A stretch of DNA of 64,000 nucleotides from Nitrospirales bacterium (lineage in GTDB: Bacteria > Nitrospirota > Nitrospiria > Nitrospirales > UBA8639), in assembly GCA_963422365.1 (NCBI GenBank), contig OY729426.1, positions 160,001 to 224,000 on the forward strand. Direction: 5' to 3'. The notes under the pieces are model-generated. The model saw only the letters and a program-made list of their open reading frames with translations. It was not told where the DNA came from and did not search any database. A program made the position numbers and the translations under genes. Positions 27,866 through 44,750 of the stretch are shown here, one piece after another. The stretch's first letter is position 1. Each line of letters opens with the position of its first letter.

Positions 27866-28669
27866 TTAGGAAACAGGCTCGGATTGTTGCGTGTTCGGCG
27901 GAGCCCCACGATTCTTGAGGGCCCTGTCCCACCATGCCTTCCATTCCTGAGCCCACGCGATTCGTTGCTCATGGGTCGAGCCTTGCCAATCACGTGGCGG
28001 GCCACCCCATCGGGTTAACCGCCAGAACGACTCAAGGGCCGTGACGGACACATATTTTTCCTGATCAGCCAGCAACTCGATAAGGAGCGACACCGCTTCC
28101 GGACGTCTCACGTGGCGAGACTCAAAAGCCACTGTTCGCCGAATGGTATCATGCTCATCCTTCACTAACTCTTGCAGCGTTGACAGCACCTCCATAGGCG
28201 CCAACCGGACAGCCACGCGAAGGGCATGAGCCCGCACCCTCGTGACTTCCTCTCTATCCCTCGCAGCGTCAAGTAAAGCCGGCACGGCTTGTGGATCTTT
28301 AATAATCGACAGCGTTTCAATTGCATTATAACGAAGCCGGCTCCCAGGCAGTTTGAGGGCTTTCACTAAGACGGGCACAACGGGTTTTCCCAAGTGTACG
28401 AACTCAGCGATCACATACAGTTCTTGCTGTCCTTCCAATAGAGGCAACAAGGCTTCTGCCCGTTTCAACTCCTTTTCAGAAAGGACTTCCGGAGCAGGGG
28501 CGGCTTGTTCGACTTCTGGAAATTCTGGCTGGGGTGGGGCGTTATAAGGGATTTGGACCGGAAGAAGAGAGGCCGATCGAGAAACCATTGTGCCAACGTC
28601 CGCAAGGGAGATCGACGCACAAAAGAGGCTACTCCACCCCACCACGATCCATACGATACCGACTCTCAT
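27866..28669 (-). CDS. Exported HEAT-repeat protein
   Basis: Signal peptide; VPVLVKAL, AVPALL, AVSLLIELL repeats. Confidence 0.7.
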   Translation of the reverse strand: MRVGIVWIVVGWSSLFCASISLADVGTMVSRSASLLPVQIPYNAPPQPEFPEVEQAAPAPEVLSEKELKRAEALLPLLEGQQELYVIAEFVHLGKPVVPVLVKALKLPGSRLRYNAIETLSIIKDPQAVPALLDAARDREEVTRVRAHALRVAVRLAPMEVLSTLQELVKDEHDTIRRTVAFESRHVRRPEAVSLLIELLADQEKYVSVTALESFWRLTRWGGPPRDWQGSTHEQRIAWAQEWKAWWDRALKNRGAPPNTQQSEPVS

Positions 28670-29068
28670 ACACCCTCTCCTTTTCTAGGGAATGATGAAC
28701 GACATGCTATTTTAGTCTAGTGCGTTCCCCTCAAGTGGGTCAAGGCAAAGAGGACCGCCATGAACCCCAGAGACTGCGTGAGTGCCCTTCTGTGGTCATC
28801 CTGAACAAAACGCCAATCCTGTAAGGCGCCATCTCATGGCGCCTCCTTCTAGCTCTTTTCTCTTGTGCCATTCCCAATGCTTGTCCCCGACCTGCTCGGT
28901 GATCTAATCGGGAATCCAGTCCATGTGTAGGCCGGATAATTTCGAGATCTTGGGGGTATTGATAACAAAATTACCATTCTTTAATCTTGATCCTATGAAT
29001 GTTAAAATTAGTGTTCTGCGTTTTCATGATGATGTTCATGACGACTTTCTGGAGAAGGAGGGTTCCAT

Positions 29069-29980
29069 ATGAGATCAGTGAGATTTCTCCTTGGCTTAGG
29101 ATTAGTGATCGGACTGAGCACAAGCCCAAGCTGGGGATATGAAGAAACCACCGTATCCAACGGCGGAACCTTACAGGGGATGGTCAAGTTGCTCGGAGAA
29201 GTCCCCAAACCCAAGGGATACAACCTCGTCACCTTGCCGGACGCCGTGTATTGCGGCCGCATCTCGACCGGAACGGGCTGGCGTCTCCTGCAACCCTTTG
29301 TCATCGGACCCACCGGAGGATTTAAAAATGTGGTCATTTACATTGGAAAAATCCACAAGGGGAAACCCTTCAGCTATGTCCCGCCCCAGATCAAGGCGAT
29401 CGACTGCACATTCGAGCCTTATATCACCATCGTCCGAGACAAGCACGACATCGAAGTAGTGAATATGGACCCTGTTTTTCATGATATTCAAGGATATGAA
29501 ACCTCAACGTTCGGAGCCCGGGTCCTCTTTAATGTCCCCTTGCCGATGAGTAAAAAACTGCGTAAAGAAGTGTTCCTTGCCGGCAAGACGGTCAAAGATC
29601 GAGCAGGCAAGGTGTTGACCCAACGCATCAACATGGGGAAACAGCGAAAGCTGTTTGTAATGCAATGCGGATTTCACGCCTACATGGAAAGTTGGGGGTT
29701 TGCGGTCACAAACCCCTACTACGCACTCACGGCGAAAGACGGCTCGTATTCGATTACGGATATCCCGCCCGGAACCTATAAGGTACAGGTCTGGCATCCC
29801 ATGGTTCAGAAAGAATATACCGTGACGATCACTCCCAACGGCACCACCGAATTGCAGATTGAGATCAATGCGCCGAAAGGCCGACTCTACGCCAACGAAA
29901 TGAGTGAAGGAACACGCTTCGGCATGGAATTGCTTGGGGACGTCACCGTTAAACCCAGTGTGGAACGCCAAACCTATTAA
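29069..29980 (+). CDS. Periplasmic carboxypeptidase-regulatory-like/cupredoxin-like domain protein
   Basis: Signal peptide, CTFEP, NMDPVFH, CGFHAYM, DIPPGTYKVQVWHP. Confidence 0.7.
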   Translation: MRSVRFLLGLGLVIGLSTSPSWGYEETTVSNGGTLQGMVKLLGEVPKPKGYNLVTLPDAVYCGRISTGTGWRLLQPFVIGPTGGFKNVVIYIGKIHKGKPFSYVPPQIKAIDCTFEPYITIVRDKHDIEVVNMDPVFHDIQGYETSTFGARVLFNVPLPMSKKLRKEVFLAGKTVKDRAGKVLTQRINMGKQRKLFVMQCGFHAYMESWGFAVTNPYYALTAKDGSYSITDIPPGTYKVQVWHPMVQKEYTVTITPNGTTELQIEINAPKGRLYANEMSEGTRFGMELLGDVTVKPSVERQTY

Positions 29981-30052
29981 GAGACACCGTAACGCCTCAG
30001 GACAGCCCCAGCCGATTTTCTTCTGACAGGCGAAAAGAAGGGCGGCTCGCCA

Positions 30053-30778
30053 ATGGCGAACCCCGAACATATCACCGTACTCAAACAAGGGCCACGCCAG
30101 TGGAATGCCTTTCGAAAGAACAATCCTTCAATGCGTCCCGATGTATCGAGTGCCGATCTTTCGAGATGGGATTTATCGGAAGCCGACCTGACCGGAGCCA
30201 ATTTAAACGACGCGAATCTGAGTCACGCCAACCTTTCGCATGCTCGTCTTGACGGAGCCAATTTAGGGGAAGCCAATCTTCTCAATGCGAAGATGACGGG
30301 AGCGAAGGGGCACCACACCAATCTGAGTGAAGCCGACATCGGCAACGCCGATCTCAGCAAGGCCGACTTTCGGCACAGCACGTTCTTGAAAGCCGATCTG
30401 TCCGGGGCCAATCTGTCGAACGCCACGCTTTCACATGCGAACTTCCATTTTGCCAAGTTAGAACATAGCATCCTCAATGCGTCGGATCTCAGGCATGCCA
30501 AGCTGCGGGAGGCCTCTCTCACTCACGCGCAAATGGAACACGCTCAATTAGACCATGCCGATCTGGCCCATGCCTCGCTCGCCCAATCGAATCTTCGCCA
30601 TGCCTCCTTCCAGAACACCTCACTCATTCAAACCAACCTTGAACAGGCGAATATAGAAGATGCGCAACATCTCGGGCATAAGCAACTCGCCAAAACGCGA
30701 AGCCTTGTCCATACGATCGCAGACCAAGCTCTTCTTGACAAAGTCGCCATCGCCAACCCTAAGTTGTTCACCACTTAG
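30053..30778 (+). CDS. Pentapeptide repeat protein
   Basis: MANPEH..WNAFR leader followed by tandem A(D/N)Lxx repeats. Confidence 0.92.
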   Translation: MANPEHITVLKQGPRQWNAFRKNNPSMRPDVSSADLSRWDLSEADLTGANLNDANLSHANLSHARLDGANLGEANLLNAKMTGAKGHHTNLSEADIGNADLSKADFRHSTFLKADLSGANLSNATLSHANFHFAKLEHSILNASDLRHAKLREASLTHAQMEHAQLDHADLAHASLAQSNLRHASFQNTSLIQTNLEQANIEDAQHLGHKQLAKTRSLVHTIADQALLDKVAIANPKLFTT

Positions 30779-30875
30779 GGCACCCCTTCGACCGGACACA
30801 TGGTTTGTTCCGCAACCCTTTTGCTGATTGAAGCTGCATCGCAGACGGCGGTGGTGCTGTGTTCGCAAAGGATCG

Positions 30876-31256
30876 TTAGACCTGGAATCCGAGTGCTGCG
30901 GCTACAGTCCGCTGCCGATCGTCGAGCGTGATGAACGAAATTTCACTTGGCTCGCTGGCGAGGTAGAGGGCCGTCGCGACATGCCACAGATCGGCACCCC
31001 GCAAGTAGCCGACCTGGAGCACCGTCTCGAACTCGTGGGTCAGCGGACGATCCGGCAGGACCCACTCGATGCCTGAGACAAGATTTGGTGCAAAGCAGTG
31101 TCTCGCGCGCGTGAATGCGGCCCACAGTTCTGCATCGAGCAAATTCGAGGACAGAAGACGCGAAAACGCGTCCGGACGCCGGGCGAGGGCAGCCGCACCT
31201 TGCTCGTTGAATGCAATGGCAACGAATGTGAACGTGTCGACGTAGGCGACGCTCAT
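30876..31256 (-). CDS. PIN-domain (VapC-like) toxin
   Basis: YVDT..E..LRGADLWHVATA..FITLDDRQ acidic PIN motifs. Confidence 0.8.
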   Translation of the reverse strand: MSVAYVDTFTFVAIAFNEQGAAALARRPDAFSRLLSSNLLDAELWAAFTRARHCFAPNLVSGIEWVLPDRPLTHEFETVLQVGYLRGADLWHVATALYLASEPSEISFITLDDRQRTVAAALGFQV

Positions 31257-31517
31257 TCGTCGCGTTCGGCGAGAAATCGTTCAAGGGCGCCTGGCGCCGC
31301 CCTACCACTTCCATGGGCTTCCTGGGCTCGCCCGAGCCAACCAAGATCCCTTGCCGTTCAAGGTCATCGAGTCGCACTTCGATCGTCGCAGGCGGGTGCC
31401 TGACCGCGCGAATCTCGGCTACGGGCTTTCCCCGATAGGAAGCCGTGACCATCTTCCCATCGCGCACCTGCCGGAGAACCTCGCCTTAACGTCATATGCC
31501 GAATACGTGATACCCAT
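31253..31517 (-). pseudogene. Phd/YefM antitoxin with two frameshifts
   Basis: MGITYSAYDVKARFS / RQVRDGKMVTASYRGKPVAEIR / GALERFLAERDE-TGA; corrected stop overlaps the vapC ATG (ATGA). Confidence 0.8.
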
Positions 31518-31587
31518 GGCCATTATGTTCACTGGTCAGACTATCAAGCAAATTCGTCCATGATTGACACCGCCAATGTGACGGTAT

Positions 31588-31700
31588 CTTCTTCACCTCA
31601 GACACGTACGGTGGCAGCCTGGCTTTTTTCTCGAAGCGCTCGATCAACTCGCAGGCGGCTTCGACCATGGCCTGCTCGGTCTTGATCTCCGTGGCGATTA
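31588..31700 (-). repeat. hsdM-S 3' tail copy 5 (most decayed)
   Basis: IATEIKTEQAMVEAACELIERFEKK / QAATVRV*GEED. Confidence 0.75.
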
Positions 31701-31851
31701 GGGAACGGTTAGGCAAGAGGTGGGTGAGGGTGAGTGTTGATACTTGGTCAAAGACTCTCTTCTTACTCTATGACGATCTGCGTTTTCCTTATCTCCCTTA
31801 CAATAAATCTCGATACATTCAATGCGTTGCACTTGCTCAAGATACGAGTAG

Positions 31852-32624
31852 CTGACGCGAAGTGACAATCCCTTCAAATATCGGCAACCTCATACGAAAG
31901 CGGCTTGCGTCTTGCGCGGATTTCCACGGAATATCCTCGTGGAAATCATTGTCTATCTCTTTCGCATTTTTATCGGAGAGACGGGCTAACACACCATCAC
32001 GCTGCTCAACGTCACGAGCAAAAAATATGTCAAGGTTGGGACACTTGAGCGGGAGGCATTGCTTCTGACTATATTGGAATTATTGACTATTGACCGCCTC
32101 AATGTCTCCACTCTCTTGCATGCTTTTCAGAATTGAATCTCATGCAACCGACGTGGGACCGTGCTGATTTTTGAGGTACGTCGCACCCATGAAGGTTTTC
32201 TCGAATTTTTCGTAATATTCAAAATCAATACAATACAGCAGGTTATGAAAGACGATCTCACCAACATTCGGCTTGCCGCCAATTTCATTCAAGACAGAAA
32301 GAAGTACTTGCTTGAATGTATCCAGATTTTTTTCCTCAACGCGAATCCGGAGGTCTCCGGTTTTTCGCACAGACTGTTTTGTGAGTGTCACGGTATGCTT
32401 CGGCTCGCGGCCCGCCAAAAAATCTTCAGCGACAGATCAAAAATCCCCGCCTATCTACTGGCCTCGCCCACCTTAAGCTCCTGCTCATCTCGCTCGCTGT
32501 ACACATAGGTAGAACGAGACATCCCAAGCTCGGACGCAAGGCGTTCTTATGTCATGTTGCGCTCGGTGCGTTGCCGTTGAATGTTAGTTTATTCTTCTTG
32601 AGATATAGTAAAATCAACTGCCAC
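31852..32624 (-). pseudogene. HTH + DUF4065 (Panacea/SocA-like) protein, multiple stops
   Basis: HTH remnant MT*ERLASELGMSRSTY; KFKQVLL-like TFKQVLL..GGKPNVGE..LLYCIDF..MGATYLKNQHGP, later HEDIPW; interrupted by stops. Confidence 0.7.
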
Positions 32625-32740
32625 CGGAAGCAAGCTCTGTTTATAACAGGGCAATTGCTTGTGTTGACCAGAAAATTCACTCCATAAAGCCATAATTACT
32701 CCGTTTGAAGTGAACTGAAGATACAATTGGAATAATCAAA

Positions 32741-33868
32741 TTGAGAAAACCCATTCTGTCCACAAAACTATCCAGCGAAGGGCTTCACCTTCCTAGTCTG
32801 TCGGTCAAAGGATTTCGTGGGATTGAAGACCTTTGGATTCCACACCTAGGCCGCGTGACCCTCATCGCCTGAAAGAACGGAGTCGGCAAGACGACTCTCC
32901 TGGATGCCGTCCGCCTCTATGCCGCACGTGGCCATTATCTCGTTATTATGAACATATTGCAGAACAGGGAAGAGCTTATTGGCGTTGTTGACGAGAAGGA
33001 CGGTGATGAGACCTTTGCCTTCGGTCTTGAGGCTATCTTCCATGGTCGGCACCTTTCGTCAGAAGCCTGCATTTCAATAGGTTCAAGGAGCGAGGCCCAG
33101 CAACTTCGCATCAAGTCTGCTTTGAATATACAACAGAGGCTGTTGTTCCCTGAGAATTTTTCAAACAGAGATGAGCCGTTAATCGAGATCAAATTCCAAG
33201 GCAAAACACAAGAAATTCCTGTGAGTTCTTTCTTGCCTACACCTCGGGTCCCATATCGCAAATTGAGGGATGACGAATCCGAATATCCACCTGCGATTTA
33301 CTGCAAGTCTTTGGGCCCGAGTTTGCTGGGCAATGCTGATATAGCACGATTCTGGGATAAGGTGACACTTACAAATGATGAAACCCTGGCAGTACAGGCA
33401 CTGCAATTGATTTATGGTGAAGAAGTGGAACGTGTTGCAGTAGTCGGAAACGATGCCCCACGTTCTATAGGTCGACGGGCAATTGTCAAAATGAAAGGAC
33501 AAGAGCATCCTGTTCCTTTGAAGAGTCTGGGTGATGGAGCAGTGCGCTTATTCGGTACCGCCTTGGCACTTGCCAACAGTAGAGATGGTTTTCTGGTTAT
33601 AGACGAAGCAGAAAACGGCATCCATCATTCAGTCCAACCTGATTTCTGGAAGATGGTTATGAAAACTGCGCACGAGAACAATGTGCAGGTTCTCTCAACA
33701 ACACACGGCTGGGATTGCATAGCAGGTTTTGCTCAAGCAGCAACCGATTCACAAGAAGTGTACGGAGTTCTCGTTCGTCTTGAACGGGACGACGACAGAA
33801 TCCGTGCGGTGGAATACTCTGAAGACAACCTCAAAGCCGCAGCCGAGTATGGCATCGAAGTTAGGTAA
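32741..33868 (+). pseudogene. AAA_15/AAA_21-type ABC ATPase with a nonsense codon in Walker A
   Basis: In frame from TTG 32741: VKGFRGIEDL..VTLIA-TGA(32870)-KNGVGKTT; signature SLGDG, Walker B LVIDEAENGIH, STTH. Confidence 0.85.
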
Positions 33869-33871
33869 TAC

Positions 33872-34518
33872 ATGGCTCTTCCTAGAGCGTCCCCACCAAA
33901 CCCCCGCGTTCTTTTAGTCGAGGGACAGGACGACAAGCACGTTATTGCGAATCTCCGCAAACGTCATCAATTCACACCAGATTTTGATATTCTGGCTAAA
34001 GACGGCCTTGACACTCTACTCGAAACTGTTGGCGCTGAGCTGAATGTTCCTGGACGTCAAGCTATCGGTATACTCATAGACGCAAACGACGATTTGACGG
34101 CACGTTGGAATGCTGTCAAAGACAAGCTTCCCGACCAATACCGAGATTCACTTTCGTCTCTTGATCCAAACGGGACCATCATTCAAGTCAAGCCTCGCAT
34201 CGGCATTTGGTTGATGCCCGATAATACTCATGCCGGCGAAATTGAAGACTTCGTTATTAAGATGATTCCCGAAGGTGACCCGGTATGGTCACTTTCCGAA
34301 CGCGACATAACAGGTATTCCGGAAACAGAGAGAAAGTTTTCAGAAGTAAGACACAACGAGCCAAACTGTATGCGTGGCTCGCAGCCAGGAAGGACCCCAG
34401 GAAAATGGGTTTAGCTATTCGCGCACATGACTTGAACGTTGACGGTATCCTCTGCCAGGATTTTCTAGCTTGGCTTAAGGCAGTTTTTGATGAGTCGGCT
34501 TTGATTCAACCCCACTGA
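33872..34518 (+). pseudogene. DUF3226 (TOPRIM-like) partner of the ATPase, frameshift near 34350
   Basis: LLVEGQDD, GILIDAND, IWLMPDN..GEIEDF; C-terminus KAKLYAWLA-like (RAKLYAWLAARKDP) in another frame. Confidence 0.75.
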
Positions 34519-34739
34519 CGGCTGATTTTCATTCTCTAAGATACCATGATCCCCCCAGGATAGGAATAAGAAACACCCCTCCCCAAACCGCAAGAAAACA
34601 CCTCTTCAAGAAACGATTATATTAACTTCGATGCGGCAGAGTCTTTCGGGGATGTACTAGACAACGAATCCCGTTTCATAACGAGTTTTGCCATCTTGTC
34701 AAGTGCGGCACGCCCACATTGAATGTGAAGCTGTTTCTC

Positions 34740-34895
34740 TTACGTTGTAGCCTTGACCCAAACTCGGGCGATGGTCGCCCGAATCTTCTTCTCAAAACGT
34801 TCAATCAGTTCGCGGTTAGCGTTGACTAGACTTTGTTCAGCTTCAATCTCGGCGACAATGACTTGCTGGTATTCGAGGGATGGCAGGGCGATGCC
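34740..34895 (-). repeat. hsdM-S 3' tail copy 4
   Basis: IALPSLEYQQVIVAEIEAEQSLVNANRELIERFEKKIRATIARVWVKATT-TAA, no start codon. Confidence 0.9.
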
Positions 34896-35083
34896 GTTTC
34901 CTTACGGTTCAGGTCATCATTCATGCGATTCCATAATTGATCAACATCGTCGGCAAGGTTATCTATCCTCTCCGTAATACGTTTATAGTAAACAGAACCA
35001 ATGAATGCAATGCACCTAGGGACGGCTAAGGCAATAACGCCCATGAATATGGAAATGACTTGCAGATATAAGCTGTTGTCCAC
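34826..35083 (-). CDS. Small single-TM hypothetical protein or remnant, truncated by tail copy 4
   Basis: Hydrophobic N-terminus and short coiled coil; C-terminus runs into the tail copy. Confidence 0.35.
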   Translation of the reverse strand: MDNSLYLQVISIFMGVIALAVPRCIAFIGSVYYKRITERIDNLADDVDQLWNRMNDDLNRKETASPCHPSNTSKSLSPRLKLNKV

Positions 35084-35089
35084 CGAAGA

Positions 35090-35305
35090 CTAGCCTCTTC
35101 GGGTAGGATTTCCTCTTTTTGCCTGTTCGCTCTCCCACTTCAAGGCAGCATCCTTGGTGGTTGCGTGACCGACCTGTTTGATGTGACCGCTTTCCGCCAA
35201 AGTCTGCTTATGTTCTTGTTCACGCCTTTCAAGATCGTTGGTTATGCCAGTGTGAACAATCCTATTACCCTTTTTGAAGTGATATTTGTAGGTGTTTCTA
35301 GCCAT
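35090..35305 (-). CDS. Minimal GIY-YIG-like nuclease
   Basis: YKY..IVHTGITNDLERREQEH; AGGAGG RBS. Confidence 0.75.
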   Translation of the reverse strand: MARNTYKYHFKKGNRIVHTGITNDLERREQEHKQTLAESGHIKQVGHATTKDAALKWESEQAKRGNPTRRG

Positions 35306-35428
35306 TCCAAGAACCTCCTGATCTAAATCGATGATTTCGATTACAACACAAACAAGTACCGCACAAATGGCTGATTTTTTTCAATCCATGGTGAAGCAGA
35401 AAAAGCTGTATATTCTGTGACTCACCAT

Positions 35429-35560
35429 TTACTCGTCCCAGAACGCAGTAACTGCTTAAAGTACGTATTCCTTTTTCTTTCCTGACAAGTGCTGATAAAG
35501 CCGCACGACCCTAACGGCAAACGCGTAGCTTTTTCCCTGAGCGGCATTATCGGTCTTCAT
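35429..35560 (-). pseudogene. Four-helix-bundle protein (TIGR02436/IVP-like), frameshifted and truncated
   Basis: KSYAFAVRVVRLYQHL..KKEYVL / KQLLRSGTS then ends. Confidence 0.75.
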
Positions 35561-35608
35561 TTGCTGTCTTCCATGCCTTGTTAATCGCTTCAGTAATGTT
35601 TTCGCGAC

Positions 35609-35640
35609 AATTCCTAATTCTTCATTCGTAATTCCTAATT
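35609..35640. repeat. Heptamer tandem repeat preceding the four-helix-bundle gene
   Basis: AATTCCT AATTCTT CATTCGT AATTCCT AATT. Confidence 0.7.
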
Positions 35641-35642
35641 TC

Positions 35643-35713
35643 CTCCCCCACACCCGCCCAATCGCCGCCTGTATCTTCTTCTCAAAACATTCAACCAGTT
35701 CCCGATTGGCGGA
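35643..35713 (-). repeat. hsdM-S 3' tail copy 3
   Basis: ANRELVECFEKKIQAAIGRVWG. Confidence 0.85.
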
Positions 35714-35742
35714 GACTTCTGAATACATTCGCCTTCGCCGGT

Positions 35743-36810
35743 TCAGTGGTTGATATCCGATACGCACGAATTCTCAAGCCAATCCAGTTGTGAGAGTACA
35801 TCGACTGCCAAGTGAATCTGGCGGCGAGGGGAAAACTGCTGTTTCCTGTCATTCCAGGCGTAGGTTGCCTTCACGACGTCTTCCCAGGTTCGAACCGGTT
35901 CATGGCTGGCAACCCAATGAACCGTGGAGAGCAGTTCCAGGCCGAACGGCGACTCGAATCCTTTGACGAGTTTGGAAACTCTTTCAAAGCGGGCCCGGGT
36001 TTCGGCACCGTTCCGGAGAAACATGTGAGCATCCTCAAGCGCACCCGGCACCAGTTCTAATTGCTTATCAGGCGCATCGCCTCCGTCGGCGTAGCCTGAC
36101 AACAAGTGTCCCTCAACGGCATTCAGCACGTGCCGAAGGTTTGCGGCATAAGGCCCGTAAGGACCTTTGTCAAATTTCAGATTCAACGGCTCGCCCGCAA
36201 CCTGCATGAAATACATGAGCTTGTGCACTTCCAGCAGCGTCACGAACGGATCCAACAGGCCGCGAAGATAACAATCCATCAGTCCGACCAGCGCGGCTCG
36301 TCCGGCGGTCATTTCCGGAACATCACGCGAACGATTGGCCCGCCCGTCCACCGGTCTGCCGCCCGGGTCAAAGATGACGATCTTCACACCATCCAGTTTT
36401 CCCAGAGCCGCTTCCATGCGAGCACGCACGTCTTGCCAGTCTAATAACCCCAGCCCGCTGCCGAGCGGCGGGATGGCAATCGATCGGATGTTGCGCGTCC
36501 GGATCTCCTCCGCCAGCGCGGCAAGGCCGGTTTCGATATCCTTCAGGCGACTCTTACCTCGCCAGTGCCTCTTGGTCGGAAAATTGATGATGTAACGCGG
36601 GAATAGCGTCCGGCGGGTCTCGAAGACGAACATCCGGCCCGGTTGCACCTCGTTCCGCTTGCAAGCGTCGGCATAGGATTTGAAGTTTTCAGGAAAGGCT
36701 TTCCTGAACTGAAGCGCGATCCCGCGCCCCATGACGCCGACGCAGTTGACAGTGTTGACCAGGGCTTCGGCCTCTTCCGCAAGAATATCGCCTGTTTTGT
36801 ACTCAATCAT
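35743..36810 (-). CDS. darG: DarG antitoxin (macrodomain DNA ADP-ribosyl glycohydrolase)
   Basis: VNTVNCVGVMGRGIALQF, IINFPTKRHW, IAIPPLGSGLG; C-domain HKLMYF..YGPY..GLELLSTVHW. Confidence 0.9.
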   Translation of the reverse strand: MIEYKTGDILAEEAEALVNTVNCVGVMGRGIALQFRKAFPENFKSYADACKRNEVQPGRMFVFETRRTLFPRYIINFPTKRHWRGKSRLKDIETGLAALAEEIRTRNIRSIAIPPLGSGLGLLDWQDVRARMEAALGKLDGVKIVIFDPGGRPVDGRANRSRDVPEMTAGRAALVGLMDCYLRGLLDPFVTLLEVHKLMYFMQVAGEPLNLKFDKGPYGPYAANLRHVLNAVEGHLLSGYADGGDAPDKQLELVPGALEDAHMFLRNGAETRARFERVSKLVKGFESPFGLELLSTVHWVASHEPVRTWEDVVKATYAWNDRKQQFSPRRQIHLAVDVLSQLDWLENSCVSDINH

Positions 36811-36827
36811 AGCGGCCTCCCCATTCG

Positions 36828-37023
36828 TCAATAATACCACTCGCACCTGATTTCGGCATGTGGTTGATGCACGGCAGCTGCAATGGCCGTTCTGGTCTGT
36901 TGCGCAGTAGGCTCAGACCGTACTGATCTTCGCATCACACCAGAGAAAACCGTCTTTGATAATGGAAGGCAAGCGGTCTGCGTGGACAATGTGATAAATC
37001 TTCGGATTAGTGGGTATTGACAT
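36828..37023 (-). pseudogene. darT: DarT toxin (DUF4433) with a large internal deletion
   Basis: N-terminus MSIPTNPKIYHIVHADRLPSIIKDGFLWCDA joined to the C-terminus HQPHAEIRCEWYY; the catalytic core is absent. Confidence 0.8.
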
Positions 37024-37079
37024 GTTTTGTTCTGAGCACTTTGTTCATGACTCAGTCTATGAAGAAATAGAGGCGTCAT

Positions 37080-37143
37080 CCCCACCCGCGCGATGATGGC
37101 TTGGACTTTTTGCTGAAAACGTTCAATCAGTTCGCGGTTGGTG
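37080..37143 (-). repeat. hsdM-S 3' tail copy 2
   Basis: NRELIERFQQKVQAIIARV; 24 bp (37116-37139) identical to copy 4 (34794-34817). Confidence 0.88.
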
Positions 37144-37189
37144 CTATCAATCCTGCCCGATTAAGGGTGAAATAGTTATTTGCAATTCT

Positions 37190-37750
37190 TTAATACAATA
37201 GTCGCTTAATATCATCTATCGCCTGTTGGATTTTATTATCGGTGAAATTCTCTTTGTGTAGTTTCTTTTCCCATTCATTGTCACTTGCAATATAGGTCTT
37301 CACCGCATCCAAGTTGATTTCTTTGCCAGTCTTTTCTATTTCAATCATGGAGTAATCCACGGTTGCAAGTACTTCCAATTCACGATCATTTTTATAACGC
37401 AGATTGTCAGCAACCCAGTCCAAGGCTGGTTGCAAATGATCAGGAAAGTATTTTTCTGCTTCTGTGATGTGCTTCCCTACGCCTAAAGCAGTATCAGATT
37501 TTTTTATGACGTAATTTTTACGAACAGCAATGCTCTCCGCCTTGTATCTTGCCTGAGGATTATAAGGCCCTGCTGCTTTTTTCAAGTAATCATCTGTTAC
37601 GTCCATTCCAGCTTTTCTTTTCACAAAATAGGCCATTTTTTGCTGTCGAAATCGTCCCAGTGGGTGGTCTTCATCGCTAAATTTTCGAGTCAAGACAGAA
37701 AGCAATACTGCTTCCTGAAAATCTGTCGGTACTTTTTTAGAAATCGCAGG
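37190..37750 (-). pseudogene. C-terminal extension of HsdM-S (DarG-C/Panacea-like), separated by an in-frame TAA
   Basis: Open and in frame directly after TAA 37751-37753 (PAISKKVPTDFQEAVLLSV..QKMAYF..AAGPY..ELEVLATVDY); no ATG or RBS at its front. Confidence 0.65.
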
Positions 37751-40245
37751 TTAGGCAGTTACTCCTTCGTCTTTCTGCCAAACCGTTTCAAGCCTCTCCT
37801 TGATTTTTTGCTCCATCCTCCCGATGAGTTCGCGGTTAGCATTAACGAGGGCTTGTTCGGCTTCAATCTCGGCAACGAGGGCTTGCTGAGTGGGATGGGG
37901 AGGGAGAGGAATGCGAAGTTTGCTGAACCTTGATTTGATAATTTCCTTGTAAGTCGCGCCACTTGCTTGGGCTTGCATCACTGGTACGAGTTTAGTCAAC
38001 GCCAGCGCGACATATTCGGGGATTACTTGGGTAGCGTCTTTAATAATAACGTTCTTGAATCCTTGATTGGTCGCAAGCGGTATCCTGTTGATGCCGATAC
38101 GGCCAATGGTTGCTCTTGATGACACCACCACAGAATTGGCCGGAATTACCTTTGCTGCTGATTTCTGCAAGCCTGCGTCACTTATAGTTCGTTGCGTAGC
38201 ACTGATTTCGGTGATGAGGTCATCTGGCGGTAAATCCGCTAATGTGATCCACGGCACATCGCCATCCCAATATTCTCTCACATGAGACTTTGGGGTGCCG
38301 CCGCTCTCTACTTGGAATAACGCCGAATTCCCCAATTCCACCATCGGCCACTCAGGATCAATCGCAATCTGCGGTCGGTAGTTGTCAATGACGGCACGGG
38401 CACCGTCGATGACTTTCTGGTAGCCCTCAATCTCTGCCACGATTTCCTGCTGGATTTTCAGGGGTGGGAGGGGGATTTGGAATGATGACAAATCCTTAGG
38501 GTAGACATGTGGCTGCCCCATTCCAACTTGAAGTTGGTAGATTTCTGATTGCTTAAATTTCATCATGTGAAAGACAAACGTACTGGTAATCCGTTCGTCC
38601 CTGGGTTTGATTGTTGAGCAATCGGAAGCAAATATCGGTTCATTGAAGTATGCAACAAAACCGGCGTATGCTCCCGATGCACTTACCGTGATTGTCTCGC
38701 CTGTGCGGTTAGCTTTATTGTGAAAAGATGAAGGACTTTGGCCACCTGCTATTACAGGAATCGTTCCTGCTACGACTTCTTTTCGAGTAATCGCAGTACC
38801 CTTTCTAACTTCACAAAGCTCACCGAGAGTAACTATATCAAATTTAGAGTTTATGGTTGCACTCTCCCGATACCGATCGCTGTTCAGGTTGTACTCGCCG
38901 TCTGCTGCGATTTTTGTTTTCTCGGCGACTCGTCTTTTCATGGCAGGTTCGTCTATCGCGTACTGTGCTTCGGGTTCTGCCACGCGAGCGGTGGGCACTG
39001 ATTCGCTTGCGCGTAGTTTTCCCAGATAGTCGGTGATTTCAGCCTGTACTTGCGGTAAATCGTTCTTGTCTATCTCCCGCCGTTGTGCCCCTAGGGCAAA
39101 GCCATCGTTTTCCACTTTGAAGAAGGCGATGCTGTCGGTCTTTTTCGCCAGTGCCTTGTCCAGTATCAGGATGGAGGTCTTAACACCGGAATAGGGTTGA
39201 AACACACCGGCCGGCAGGGAGATAACGGCGATGAGGTAGTTTTCCACCAGCAGCTTGCGCAGTTGCCTGTAGGCGTTCTGGCTCTGGAAGATGATGCCTT
39301 CGGGTACGATGATGCCGGCGCGCCCGGAGGGTGTCAGGTGCTCGGCGATGTAGTCCACAAACAGGACTTCGCTACGCCTGGAGTTGACCGAGAAACGCTT
39401 GTGTGGACGGATGCCGCCCGTAGGCGACATGAAGGGTGGATTGGCGAGGATGACGTCGGCATATTCGTTCCAGCGGTCTTCGCTGGTGAGGGTGTCGTAT
39501 TCAAAGACGTGGGGGTCAACAAAGCCGTGCAGATAGAGGTTGACCAGCGCAGACGCACCATGTCGGGGGAGATGTCGTAGCCTTTCAGGTTGGTAACCAA
39601 GCGGCCCCGCTCATCGGGCGTGAGGGTGTTGTGACCATGCTCATCGGTGTTGTTTTTTAAGATATGTTTGTAGGGTGAGATGAGGAAACCAGCAGTGCCG
39701 CAGGCCGGGTCGAGGATGGTTTCGTCTTTTTTGGGATCAATGACGGCAACGATGAAGTCGATGATGTGGCGCGGCGTGCGGAACTGCCCGGCGGCACCCT
39801 GCGAATCGAGGACGGAGAGCAGGTACTCGAAGGCATCGCCTAGGCGTTCGGAGTGGTCATACTCAAACTCGTCGATGAGTTTGAGAAAAGCCCGCAAAGT
39901 CTCCGGGTCGCGGTAGGGCAGAAAGGCGTTCTTGAAGATATCGCGGAACAGGGGCGGAATGCCGGGGTTCTCCGGCATTCGGGCGATGGCCTCGGCGTAC
40001 AGGTTCAGGGTCTCGTGGCCACCCAGTCCTGCGCGCATGAGCCGCGCCCAGCCATAGCGGGCAAAGTCGCCGGCAAAGAACGTGCGCTGGCCGCCCAACT
40101 CCTCGCTCTCGGCGTCGATGTCGTCCATGAATTTGTAGATGAGCGCGATAGTGATCTGCTCCACCTGACTTTTCGGATCGGGCACTTTGCCGACGAGAAT
40201 GTCGCGGGCGTTGTCAATGCGGTGTTTGGTAGCTTTATCGAGCAT
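37751..40245 (-). pseudogene. Fused type I-like N6-adenine methyltransferase + specificity subunit (HsdM-HsdS), frameshift near 39550
   Basis: GQFRTPRH, DPACGTAGFL, MVRL / LVNLYLHG, ILANPPF; two TRDs each followed by IPLPP..QQ.IVAEIE. Confidence 0.88.
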
Positions 40246-40304
40246 ATTGTCTGGACTGTGGTTTATGGGATTTGGGATTACCCTGATTTCTTATCTAAGC
40301 TTCC

Positions 40305-42892
40305 TCAGACGAACTGGTTCAGTGGCACGTAATCCTTCACGTACTCGGGAATGAGGGTGCGGTATTTTTCAGGAACGGCTTTGAAGTCGCTGGTAGAAAA
40401 GGCCTGGTTGGTGGCCAGACCGGTGAACTGTCGTCTGTCAATGATGTCTCGAACATAGACGCTGGTGACGTAAGCCTTAAAGTAGGTCTTGAGGACAGGA
40501 ATGGCTTTGGCGTCTCCAGGCTTGTCATCCGCTACGAACTTGGCGAATTCCTCTTCCAGCAGTTCATCCTTGGATTTGAAGCAAGGAATGAGGTCGAAGA
40601 CCTTTTCCAGAATCTCGCGCAGGGTCGTCGGCGGTCCACGGCGGCAGCCTGGCGCAGCTTCTCCAGCGTGTAATACTCAACGGGTTTGTCGAACACCTCG
40701 CGATTGACATAGTCGATCACGCGGTCCCACTGCCCGGCTTCGACGGCCTTTACGATGATCTCGTCTTCACGTACCGTCTCCGCGAACCGGTCAAAGAACA
40801 TCCGGTCAATCTTCATGCCCGCGTAGCCGATGGTCTCCTCCCGGATGGAAGCAATCAAGTCGTCGCCGAGATGTTCGTACGCGCCGGCGTATGTGAAAGG
40901 CGCGGCGTCTTTGCTTTTGCTGACGCCTTTGTGGGGCCGCGGCAGTTCAATGACTTGGTCGTAGTTGAATTCGGTCTCGAAGTATTCGCAGTTACCAAAG
41001 AAATCGAACAGCTTGAACGCGGTTTTTTCCGTCAGTGCGATCCCGTCCCCCGTTTCGGAGTCCGGGGCGGGCCCTGTATCGGAGTCCGGGGCCTGCTTGA
41101 GACTATCGTCAAGGAGTTGGTCGGGGAAGTCGTGCCTGCGAGTGCCGCGTCCTTTGATCTGGATGAAATCCGTTGGCGAGAAGATGGGCCGGAACAGGCC
41201 CAGATTCAGGATGTCCGGGCAGTCGTAGCCGGTCGTCATCATGCCGACCGTCACGCACACGCAGGCCTTACTGGTTTTATAGTCAGACAGGAAATTGCCC
41301 GAGCCGAGCAAATTATTATTGGTGAAGTTGATGGTGAATCGCTGGGCGTCCGCTATCTGTGACGTGACCTGTACGGCGAAGTCGGACTGGTACTTTTCGG
41401 GGAACAGACGGTCGGCCATCTGATTCAGGATTTGTGTCAGCCTGGCGGCGTGGTTCTGACTGACGGCAAAGATGATAGATTTGCCGACCTCACCGCTGAT
41501 GGGATCGCGCAGTGCGTTTTCGAGGAACGTCTTGCAAAAGAGCGCGTTGGTGGCATCGGCAAAGAAGCACTTCTCAAACTCACGCTGCTTGTAAACTTGC
41601 TCGTGATCCTCGCCCGCGTCGTCGTTGAACGACACAATGAACCCCCTCTCGGACAGGAGTCGGGTCGTGACTTCCGTGCGGGCGTCTACCACGGTCGGGT
41701 TGATCAAAACGCCATCCTGAACACCGTCGAGCAGCGAATAGCGGAAGGTGGGCTGGCCGCTCTCGCAGCCGAAGGTGCGGTAGGTGTCGAGGAGGAGGCG
41801 CCGTTCGGCATCACGCGGGTCGCGCACCGCAGAGTCTGGACTATCAAAGCCCATAAGATAATCACGCGGTGTCGCCGTCAGACCGAGTTTATAGCCGATG
41901 AAATAGTCGAACACTGCGCGGGCGTTGCCTCCGATCGAGCGATGCGCTTCATCCGAGATCACCAGATCGAAGTCCGTGGGTGAGAAGAGATTTTCGTACT
42001 TGTTGTTGAACAGCAGGGATTGAACAGTCGTGACGACAATCTCTGCGCGCCGCCAGTCGTCCCGTCGTTCCTTGTAGATCACTGTGTCAAAATCATTGGC
42101 GAGCAGTTCTTTGAATACCTTTTCAGCCTGATTTTCCAGTTCCAGCCGGTCGACCAGAAACAGAACACGGCGCGCGTTGCCGGTACGGAGAAACAATTTG
42201 ATGACGGCGGCGGCGGTGAGCGTTTTACCTGTGCCGGTCGCCATCTCAAACAGGAAGCGGTCATTGCCGTCAGACACGGCCCGTTGCAAGGCGTGCAGGG
42301 CACGAAGCTGGTAATCCCGCAGGAAGCGCAACCCGTGGGTGCGGATGAAGCCGGGGCGTTCAGATACGTTGCGCCACCCGACCTCGGCCGCATAGTTGGG
42401 GCGCTGGGTGAGGACGATGTAGTTGTCGCCGACCCGTTCATTGATCAGGCGCTGCGGATTGGGCGAGACCTGTTTGTACCCTTCCACCGAGTCCGGCGAC
42501 GGGAACGCTGTAATGATATGCGGGTTGCCGCGTTCGAGGTCCCAGAAGTAGTGCAGATTGCCGTTGGAGAGGATGACGAAGCGGCAGTTTTGCGAGCGAG
42601 CGTACTTGCGTGCCTGTTCCTTGCCGACCAGCGGGTTCTTATCTTCGGACTTGGCCTCCAGCACGATAAGCGGGGCGCCTTTGGTGTCGAGTAGCAGGAA
42701 ATCGATGAAGCCCCTGGAAGTCTTCTCGAAGTCGTTGCCAAGGTCGTCCAGATCGGACGCCTGAATCGTAACGTTCGGTTCCAGTAAGATGTTGGCGGGT
42801 TTGTCCTCTTCGGCAAAAAAACGCCACCCTGCAGCCTCGAGCCGTTTGTTGATCGTGATGCGGGCAGTCGCTTCTTTCATATGCTTCCCCAT
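40305..42892 (-). pseudogene. Type I restriction subunit HsdR, frameshift near 40627
   Basis: IDFLL..LEAK nuclease motif, MATGTGKT, DEAH, GLTATP, TTGYD, QIKGRGTR; C-terminus TLREILEK..LNQFV-TGA(40305) in a shifted frame. Confidence 0.88.
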
Positions 42893-43274
42893 CGATTATC
42901 GTTCTGGTCCTGATTGGTTGACACAGCCATCTTCTTGGCCGCATGAGATGCAACCCTACAAAGCATCTGATGGAGGCTGCTCATCACCAGCAGGTGGGTA
43001 TCCTGGACAAGTGGGCCCGACCAATACACAATGATATCTGATGGAGGGCTACAATCTTCTCCCTCTCCACTGGCTCACCACCTGTGTTTCTCATCTGTTC
43101 TTCTATTCACAATGATAGGCCAAGAGCCTGTTTAATCCGTTTTGATTCTTCAGCCCACTCACACAACAGGTGCATTCATCACTCCGGTGAGCGGAACTTT
43201 CGTTGAATGGTTTCGCCCATCAATGCAGACAAAGGCAGGGAAAGCCGACCGCGGGGTTGCTGTTGCAAGTCTGT

Positions 43275-44750
43275 TTAAGGCAGCGAGGCAGAAGCCGTAA
43301 ACGAGACGAGAGGCCACGGATAAATCCCGAATATCACGACACCCGCAACGGCAAACGCCAACACGACGGTCGCGGTGGGGGACAGGGCCAGGCGCGTTTC
43401 GAGTTCCTGGTCGGCAGTCGGCTCGCGCATGTACATGACCATCACGACGCGCAGATAGTAGAACGCAGAGACCGAGGCAAAGATCAACCCGACCACGGCC
43501 AGCCAGGTCAAGCCCGCATCGACAGCCGCCATAAAGAGGTAAAACTTGCCGATGAATCCTGCAGTCGGAGGAATGCCTGCGAGAGAGATCAGAAAGAGCA
43601 GCATCAAAAACGCCGCGCCTTTGTGGCGTTTGGCCAACCCGGTAAAGTCGTCCAGGTCTTCTCCTTCACACCCCCCTCGTCGAAGAATCGCAATAAGGGA
43701 GAATGCCCCAAAGGTCATGAAGGAATAGACGGCCAAGTATAACATCATGCTGGACACGCCTTGTGCCGACACCCCGGCTTTTGTTCCGACCCATCCCGCC
43801 ACGACCAACCCGATCAACGCATAGCCGGCATGCGCGATACTCGAGTATGCCAGCATACGCTTCACATTCGTTTGCACGATTGCCACGAGGTTCCCCAAGA
43901 TCAAGGTCAGGACACACATGCCCAAAATCAGCCCGATCCAATTCGGTTTCATGCCCCCAAAGCCTTCAAGCATCACCCGAAGGAACGCCCCGAAACTCGC
44001 GGCTTTCGATGCCACGGCCATAAACGCGGTCACCGACGTTGGCGCGCCTTGATACACATCCGGGGTCCACATATGAAAGGGCACAGCCGCCACTTTAAAG
44101 CCGAACCCCACAATCATCAGCATCAGGGCGATGAGTATCACCGAATCGTCAAGACCCCGCGCATCGACCACTGTGGCAATTTCCACCAGACGCGTGCTGC
44201 CGGCGGCTCCGAAGATGAGTGAAATGCCGTAGAGCAAGAGGCCCGATGAGAACGCGCCCAAAATAAAATACTTGGCCGATGATTCAACGGACTTGGCTTC
44301 AAACCGCTTGAATCCCGCCATCACGTAGAGCGAGATGGACATCAATTCAATGCCCAGATAGATGACCAACAGGTCGGCGCTGGAGACCATGATCATCATG
44401 CCCGTCAAGGAGAGCAGCACAAACCCGTAAAATTCGGCCAGATCGATCCGCTCTTCCTTGAGATATCCGATGGAGAGTAAGATCGTCATGCCACTCACGA
44501 TGTAGAGCAACAGTTTCCAAAACGAGGCATACCCGTCCACCACCACGAGATCGCTGAACGCATATACCCGGTCACCCATGTTGCTCGCCGTCACGATAAA
44601 ACACACCACAAGCGTGGCGACGCTCATCCACGCCAGCAGATCTTTCTTGGTCGATGGAGTGATCGGATCCAGGACCAACAAGAGGCAGGCGACGAACACG
44701 ACGATCATCTCTGGTAAAATCGTGACCAGATCTGCGAGAGGAATCGTCAT
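43275..44750 (-). CDS. nuoN: NADH-quinone oxidoreductase subunit N
   Basis: FKVAAVPFHMWTPDVYQGAP, KRMLAYSSIAHAGY. Confidence 0.95.
   Translation of the reverse strand: MTIPLADLVTILPEMIVVFVACLLLVLDPITPSTKKDLLAWMSVATLVVCFIVTASNMGDRVYAFSDLVVVDGYASFWKLLLYIVSGMTILLSIGYLKEERIDLAEFYGFVLLSLTGMMIMVSSADLLVIYLGIELMSISLYVMAGFKRFEAKSVESSAKYFILGAFSSGLLLYGISLIFGAAGSTRLVEIATVVDARGLDDSVILIALMLMIVGFGFKVAAVPFHMWTPDVYQGAPTSVTAFMAVASKAASFGAFLRVMLEGFGGMKPNWIGLILGMCVLTLILGNLVAIVQTNVKRMLAYSSIAHAGYALIGLVVAGWVGTKAGVSAQGVSSMMLYLAVYSFMTFGAFSLIAILRRGGCEGEDLDDFTGLAKRHKGAAFLMLLFLISLAGIPPTAGFIGKFYLFMAAVDAGLTWLAVVGLIFASVSAFYYLRVVMVMYMREPTADQELETRLALSPTATVVLAFAVAGVVIFGIYPWPLVSFTASASLP

Follow-up and report, generated by a model that had tools for sequence, protein, structure and literature searches.

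The genome of the Nitrospirales bacterium considered here is a single contig of 2.5 Mb, and the stretch analysed, referred to as the window, comprises 64,000 nucleotides of it (C1:160001-224000). A housekeeping protein encoded in the window groups with Nitrospirales proteins when clustered at 90%. On the minus strand of the window lie hsdR, a fused hsdM-S gene, and then about 7 kb of cargo, with nuoN on one side of the locus and a pentapeptide gene on the other. The genes are those of a type I restriction-modification (R-M) system with a fused HsdM-S, comprising the HsdR helicase-nuclease, the N6-methylase, and two S domains. Neither gene is intact: hsdR is frameshifted near 40626, as comparison with an intact homolog revealed, and hsdM-S near 39550, within window letters (38877-39741) that a contig of run X3 matches without gaps. 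The hsdM-S gene ends at the TAA codon 37751-37753. The last stretch of the gene that is common to relatives across phyla is a terminal conserved region of 147 bases (CR2), and copies of this region, called tails below, recur among the cargo genes.

Tails and cargo of the hsdM-S locus

Tails were located with a DNA profile made from homologous gene ends, the window being left out. It matches five minus-strand copies, of which T1 lies inside the gene and T2-T5 are orphans (Table 1), and shuffled downstream DNA gave no match of at least 14 bits to the profile. The five copies described in an earlier note on this DNA are real and far above chance. The shared words reported there are exact, a 14-mer being common to 37827 and 34807 and a 24-mer to 37116 and 34794. 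The copies are also diverged alleles, as claimed, with 24-39 of 48 bases identical when counted from the ANRE codon. Three further remarks of that note stand only in part. T2 and T3 had been said to begin at ANRE; T2 clearly does, but alignment of T3 with the tail of locus L031 shows a probable extension, with internal deletions, back to about 35762. The most distal tail, T5, is the most decayed per base (0.45 bits), but not by total score, which rises in the order T2, T3, T5, T4. The tails had been described as lacking start codons, but T3 and T5 sit in open frames with GTG/TTG starts, with no sign that these are used.

Elsewhere in the 2.5-Mb genome, a single weak remote copy was detected (C1:1,067,500). 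This orphan tail (G000:C1:1067444-1067540, locus L205) scores 27 bits, and the 20 kb fetched contain no R-M gene. Within hsdM-S itself, the central conserved region CR1 is an internal paralogue of the tail's 5' half.

The first item behind the gene had been counted as a separate Panacea/DarG-C-like cargo module, a view that the homologs do not favour. The DarG-C-like domain is in frame with M-S and separated from it by one TAA, Methylase_S is present in 115 of 117 longer homologs of the domain, and one of these (P0001) is a 972-aa M-S fusion carrying the domain after the tail. These observations indicate that "cargo 1" most probably represents a C-terminal domain severed from an M-S fusion. 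Many HsdS proteins carry a DarG-C/Panacea-like domain fused at their C-terminus (P0001-P0117); as a lead, such a domain on the specificity subunit is a candidate built-in antitoxin-like or guard domain.

The cargo proper begins with a remnant that we take to be darT from its sequence likeness and position, the overlapping open reading frame having no family match, and continues with darG. The labels of the four-helix-bundle remnant, the RelE-like partner of the HTH-Panacea gene, and the vapB-like antitoxin are likewise our assumptions. The block formed by the GIY-YIG-like and small membrane genes (34895..35305) is common to loci L039, L050, L038, and L202. In the inverted pair, the AAA ATPase frame is open only from 32948 and DUF3226 is frameshifted. 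Broken genes thus include the AAA ATPase, DUF3226, HTH-Panacea, and the vapB-like gene, and remnants represent darT, the RelE-like, and the four-helix-bundle genes; the open frames remaining in the array are darG, the GIY-YIG-like gene, and the PIN gene. With its R-M genes and most of its cargo broken in this genome, the locus reads mainly as a record of past traffic.

Short repeats are frequent in the surroundings of tails. Short tandem repeats and hairpins often abut orphan tails (window 35560-35640; L065:11540-11575; L154:7170-7260; also L163, L167, L036, L031, and L063); we take them to be of the four-helix-bundle or GxxExxY type and repetitive extragenic palindromic (REP)-like, respectively. 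In L104, an IS200-like (Y1) gene and a truncated copy of it lie directly before an orphan tail. Beside hsdR, a repeat of 31-39 bases (42926-42965; also 28820-28850) has at least four further copies in the genome and is probably a REP-like element; it gives a short-sided 14-kb joint in assembled contigs.

Table 1. Features of the hsdM-S locus, in positions of the window
Feature	Position	Strand	Evidence and remarks
hsdR, type I restriction subunit	40305..42892	-	Pfam ResIII/HSDR_N; PADLOC REase_I; two frames against intact homolog
Fused hsdM-S, two target-recognition domains (TRDs)	37751..40245	-	Pfam; PADLOC; frame comparison
CR1, central conserved region	38406..38476	-	profile positions 1-71, 32 bits; tblastn
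T1, terminal conserved region CR2, inside hsdM-S	37776-37912	-	profile 93 bits; tblastn
DarG-C-like domain	37190..37750	-	translation; PADLOC DarG 171-326
T2, orphan tail	37080-37142	-	profile 35 bits; begins at ANRE
Presumed darT remnant, ~70 codons	36811..37023	-	three-frame translation; internally deleted and frameshifted
darG, open frame, ATG at 36810	35743..36846	-	NCBIfam NF048014, 450 bits (cut-off 250); PADLOC DarG
T3, orphan tail	35645-35717	-	profile 54 bits
Presumed four-helix-bundle gene remnant	35430..35560	-	translation; no family match; behind short low-complexity repeats
GIY-YIG-like small gene, open	35090-35305	-	Pfam GIY-YIG E 0.007, below cut-off
Small membrane gene, stop lost	34895-35083	-	translation
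T4, orphan tail, full-length CR2	34751-34891	-	profile 116 bits
AAA ATPase and DUF3226 pair, inverted	32759..34518	+	Pfam; PADLOC candidate PDC-M38A/B
HTH-Panacea (SocA) gene, frameshifted, with 42-codon remnant of small partner gene	31761..32582	-	Pfam; translation
T5, orphan tail, frameshifted	31588-31727	-	profile 63 bits
Presumed vapB-like antitoxin, frameshifted, with PIN-domain gene (30876-31256, open)	30876..31517	-	Pfam PIN E 1e-5; translation

Recurrence of orphan tails in homologous loci

The survey covered 151 loci: the window, six regions from the genus, and those loci that could be scored among the best 80 of 564 genome and best 80 of 583 metagenome matches. Not included were 15 loci whose gene end was unusable, a duplicate, and a region at a contig end. 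Orphan tails were called at 20 bits or more. Six loci (L072, L111, L124, L129, L150, and L192) were typed by eye as two-TRD, which removed six false tails. In 1.05 Mb of downstream DNA, 31 orphan tails were found in 21 of the 151 loci, all 31 on the same strand and of variable length; none occurred on the opposite strand, nor in 519 kb upstream of the genes. The expectation of the earlier note that multiple downstream tails with variable cargo would recur was thereby borne out.

The rest of the operon does not accompany the tails. In the same downstream DNA, about 1.05 Mb, an hsdM DNA profile had no match and an hsdR DNA profile a single one, a second copy in L039. When the 31 orphans are joined by 13 tails from regions without the R-M gene, a TRD remnant lies beside only one of the 44, and it is 31 bases long; a 25-aa M-S piece in L059 is the sole small exception to the absence of operon remnants. 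Random deletion scars of whole tandem operons are ruled out by the lack of hsdM remnants and the single second hsdR; the earlier note had named such scars as a refutation.

The distribution of tails is uneven. Among loci with at least 3 kb of downstream sequence, tails are present in 8 of 12 single-TRD against 13 of 102 two-TRD loci (p 1e-4), although related loci are not independent. The single-TRD M-S alleles, of about 630-700 aa and mostly with a foreign last helix, are strongly linked to orphan tails (L127, L153, L163, L167, L049, L065, L070, L069, L071, and L139). Two-TRD loci carry tails in 11 of 38 chromosome-level metagenome-assembled genomes (MAGs) and genus relatives compared with 2 of 64 others, kin again not being independent. 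Some taxon names in the chromosome-level group presumably point to sponge symbionts. In six genomes of the genus (G030, G019, G014, G002, G061, and G007), tails and the same cargo lie at or beside the flanks of the window site, and the sequence retrieved contains neither hsdR nor hsdM; one of them, G002, carries four tails. The R-M genes can therefore be lost while the array persists.

Duplicated cargo blocks are present in L059, L091, and L110, and T2 and T4 have the 24-mer in common. Both observations would fit local tandem duplication of a tail with its cargo, after which one copy of the cargo was replaced or decayed. This origin is very improbable, because the window tails are diverged alleles, and because T2 and the block upstream of it are closer to a gammaproteobacterial copy than to any tail of the window.

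The integrity of the window was assessed with contigs, rather than reads, of runs from two coded studies; contigs drop rare variants. The listed contig pieces of runs X3, X6, and X7 match the window without mismatch. Those of X3 overlap across all five tails, over 28500-38465 and 38877-44000, at an even depth of 72-90. One of the three matching runs may be the source sample; run X1, which covers only small parts, provides no evidence. The samples do hold other organisms with related alleles, contigs break at T4, and the contig joints that touch tails have short sides and extra letters and resemble other organisms' alleles. These features could be read as signs of a chimeric co-assembly of strain variants, a barely credible explanation in view of the mismatch-free contigs and of the same architecture in independent genomes; on this point the array described in the earlier note is upheld. 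In X3, depth is 88-90 at 37224-37703 and 38877-39741 whereas the flanks have about 75, and other alleles are present in X6, which suggests co-occurring organisms with near-identical DarG-C-like and hsdM DNA.

Junctions and the probable movement of blocks

One comparison involves a gammaproteobacterial MAG (L039), which has both the DarG-C-like domain and T2 in common with the window. Left of 37129, 483 of 500 bases (97%) are identical, and to the right 28 of 39. For the non-coding part alone the figures are 57/61 and 28/39 (p 0.004, with the breakpoint chosen by eye). The GIY-YIG/small-gene block and T4 are also common to the two, at 80%, and T4 in L039 begins at the stop codon of the small membrane gene. 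T5 in G030 and G007 begins right at the stop of the partner gene. This sharing indicates that the 5' parts of tails are tied to the genes upstream of them, and not, as had been proposed, that the mobile unit is simply a tail with the cargo following it. Other common blocks diverge at other tail positions (T4/L039, L036/L167).

The 3' part of a tail remains with the downstream gene. In L060, DUF3644 lies behind the gene's own tail, but in L065 behind an orphan (51/56 identical in the tail, 378/400 in the gene), and a TIR gene shows the same displacement between L061 and L051. A module that adjoins the gene in one genome can thus be found displaced in another. In the window, T5 continues as far as an ATG at 31561, where the sequence matches the beginning of the gene that usually comes third in this family (35/51, ungapped, to L118). 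T5 is therefore likely to be the ancestral gene end, which supports insertion at the front. That old gene ends were pushed downstream, as the earlier note had supposed, agrees with these cases. The third gene itself encodes 245 aa without a Pfam or NCBIfam match (L034:6094-6831 and 28 other loci) and directly follows the tail in 21 of the 29 copies found; it is a candidate third component of this R-M family.

From these comparisons, the orphan tails are probably displaced former ends of hsdM-S, produced by RecA-type recombination at the tail, with the tail serving again later as a second homology arm or as the joint of a circle; we hold this with moderate confidence. Incoming DNA would bring a new gene end with passenger genes and recombine at the 147-base terminal conserved region. 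In a first step, insertion would be anchored by homology in hsdM-S, with an illegitimate joint on the far side, inside the tail and often at the stop codon of the cargo. In a second step, suggested by the junctions, the block of cargo and tail would be flanked by tail homology on both sides, so RecA could mobilise it once more, through a circle or a double crossover, and place it ahead of the resident cargo of a recipient; the 5' part would then travel with the upstream gene and the 3' part stay with the downstream gene. Later deletions would erode tails and cargo. Matches to recA and comEC lie in long open frames of the genome. A guess as to why first joints avoid the TRD is that pairing, and hence the exposed strand, may be confined to the conserved region. 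The role of the tail as a recombination anchor, which the earlier note had suggested, is supported.

Several observations weigh against this account. No orphan tail was detected in 130 of the 151 loci. The 44 tails fall into 31 junction groups, so new origins outnumber the spread of existing blocks, which weakens the second step. With only 50-81% identity over 48 bases, present-day tails would serve RecA poorly as substrates. In 8 of its 29 copies, the third gene has been displaced with no tail that the profile detects, and insertion thus does not need a tail. Much of the sharing within the genus resembles the core flanks in its identity of 78-88% and may reflect vertical descent. Neither a circle nor a tail-to-tail deletion from the window organism was seen in the contigs, which drop rare forms.

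The 5' ends of the tails lie close to upstream stop codons. Of the 44 tails, 13 have this end no more than 15 bases from such a stop (random positions, 8%) and 31 no more than 60 bases (random positions, 28%), in comparison with a control that takes in coding positions and is hence lenient. Together with the many independent junctions, this closeness leaves room for plain erosion. Alleles would enter by homology-anchored illegitimate recombination with a random far end, deletions would trim the old gene to the bounds set by the upstream stop and downstream signals, and the tail would be passive, never reused as an arm. The spread of 5' starts over profile positions 1-88 and the different secondary deletions in homologous tails (L050/L110, L198/L035) agree with such trimming. 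It is nevertheless a rather unlikely explanation of the whole pattern. The expected intermediates are missing, with TRD sequence in one of 44 tails and hsdM in none, and a crossover in the tail is needed to account for the change of identity within T2 and for a junction that two phyla share.

The positions of the junctions also bear on site-specific recombination. Among the 31 groups, starts at positions 1-13 (8/31) and 61-75 (10/31) form two mild humps (uncorrected p 0.08 and 0.03), and profile-called starts are biased toward the conserved ANRE motif. Only 4 of 31 groups begin at positions 70-75, so the proposed clustering of breakpoints at ANRE did not hold; a fixed breakpoint there is ruled out by starts over 88 bases. 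If a site-specific recombinase acted in trans on a site within the tail, comparable to TvrR at the pneumococcal tvr locus, the array would be integron-like. Such a mechanism could draw on the two humps, on single-gene cargo that often abuts the tail, and on the four tyrosine recombinases encoded elsewhere in the genome, all at least 57 kb from the locus. This alternative is improbable. Junctions and switch points are scattered, no resolvase-family match was found in the genome, and 10 of 10 folded tails gave no attC-like hairpin better than shuffles (z -1.3 to +0.3). No tyrosine recombinase matched in the 21 tail-bearing loci, compared with 4 of 130 others, in a search that missed a 94-aa integrase fragment in L039 found by Pfam; at the window locus, no integrase or tyrosine recombinase adjoins the array. 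The statement of the earlier note that attC sites and an adjacent integrase are absent was correct, and its integron-like reading finds neither an attC-like fold, nor a neighbouring integrase, nor a fixed crossover.

The order of the modules was considered in the same way. A decay gradient with distance is ruled out. Score per base is not correlated with distance (rho 0.10, p 0.59), and in all 7 loci that carry several tails the second orphan outscores the first. Modules are also arranged differently in the window, L039, L035, L202, and L031. The order is therefore not a clean chronology, contrary to the chronologically ordered array that had been envisaged. The term "integron-like" suggests more precision and order than this architecture has, and in the window genome the array is largely dead.

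Relation to known arrays and significance

The earlier note knew of no description of this architecture, but counterparts have been published. In rhs arrays, circles and homologous recombination were proposed, the old C-terminal ends being moved downstream, where they decay (Jackson et al. 2009, PMC2935791). As in the hsdM-S array, an intact gene is followed by same-strand fragments of a conserved region, variable in length and each with different genes. The rhs repeat is described as a core preceding a variable toxin tip, the orphan as a silent alternative protein end, and the exchange as limited to one clade, whereas in the hsdM-S array a terminal helix that comes behind the variable TRD is repeated, entire unrelated defence or toxin-antitoxin genes serve as passengers, and one block is common to Nitrospirales and a gammaproteobacterium. 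The cargo consists of unrelated defence, toxin-antitoxin, and insertion sequence genes, not of alternative toxin tips with cognate immunity. In Vibrio cholerae, immunity arrays of the type VI secretion system were likewise attributed to sequential insertion, with upstream homology and an illegitimate far joint, old genes being shifted back; later whole-array transfer through homologous recombination and a comparison with integrons, in the absence of an integrase, were also reported (Kirchberger et al. 2017, PMC5361080). There the cargo is cognate immunity genes, and the account given does not include a short repeated arm between all modules.

Other systems share single features with the locus. 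Recombination at the conserved repeats flanking TRDs replaces, deletes, and duplicates TRDs in hsdS and gives single-TRD alleles (Furuta et al. 2011, PMC3077401). The hsdM-S array uses the same repeats, but in that description TRDs move within genes, and passenger stacking does not form part of it. The pneumococcal tvr locus has hsdS-associated direct repeats with a toxin-antitoxin pair between them, excised circles, and a dedicated recombinase, TvrR, which rearranges TRDs from a fixed repertoire (Kwun et al. 2018, PMC6265443). In contrast, no recombinase accompanies the hsdM-S array, and 43 of 44 tails have no TRD upstream and thus no spare one. Insertion of R-M genes with long target duplication leaves repeat-flanked inserts, the repeats being tens to hundreds of bases long, without a mobility gene (Furuta et al. 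2010, PMC2853133). In that case near-identical repeats surround inserted R-M genes, whereas in the present locus the R-M gene is itself the target and diverged alleles form the repeats. Type I R-M loci are known to collect defence cargo (Payne et al. 2024, bioRxiv 10.1101/2024.01.29.577857; review PMC12707154), and the words "recombination", "hsdS", and "remnant" are absent from the main text of the former.

The hsdM-S tail array thus works like the displacement arrays but is not an rhs member, an integron, or a tvr shufflon. The class of mechanism has already been proposed for the rhs and type VI arrays; what is new is the use of whole defence genes as passengers and the evidence of exchange across phyla. 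No published description of repeated hsdS tails between cargo genes was found in a search that left most subscription papers and supplements outside its scope, and supplements could bear on novelty.

A broader possibility, put forward tentatively, is that the terminal conserved region is a self-propagating, integrase-free attachment site shared across phyla. Any tail-bearing defence gene could then act as a cassette, entering bacteria that carry the family or an orphan tail while the resident cargo is kept. If true, this would amount to a community-wide exchange network for defence genes, in which tails mark new defence candidates.

Gene gain and stacking in integrase-free chromosomal defence islands are poorly understood (PMC12829572). 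The present locus family offers a concrete route, in which a short conserved gene end serves as the joint and the junctions can be read base by base. The 97%-identical block in Nitrospirales and a gammaproteobacterium suggests that this route can cross phyla, and orphan tails provide a search handle for defence cargo where the R-M genes have been lost.

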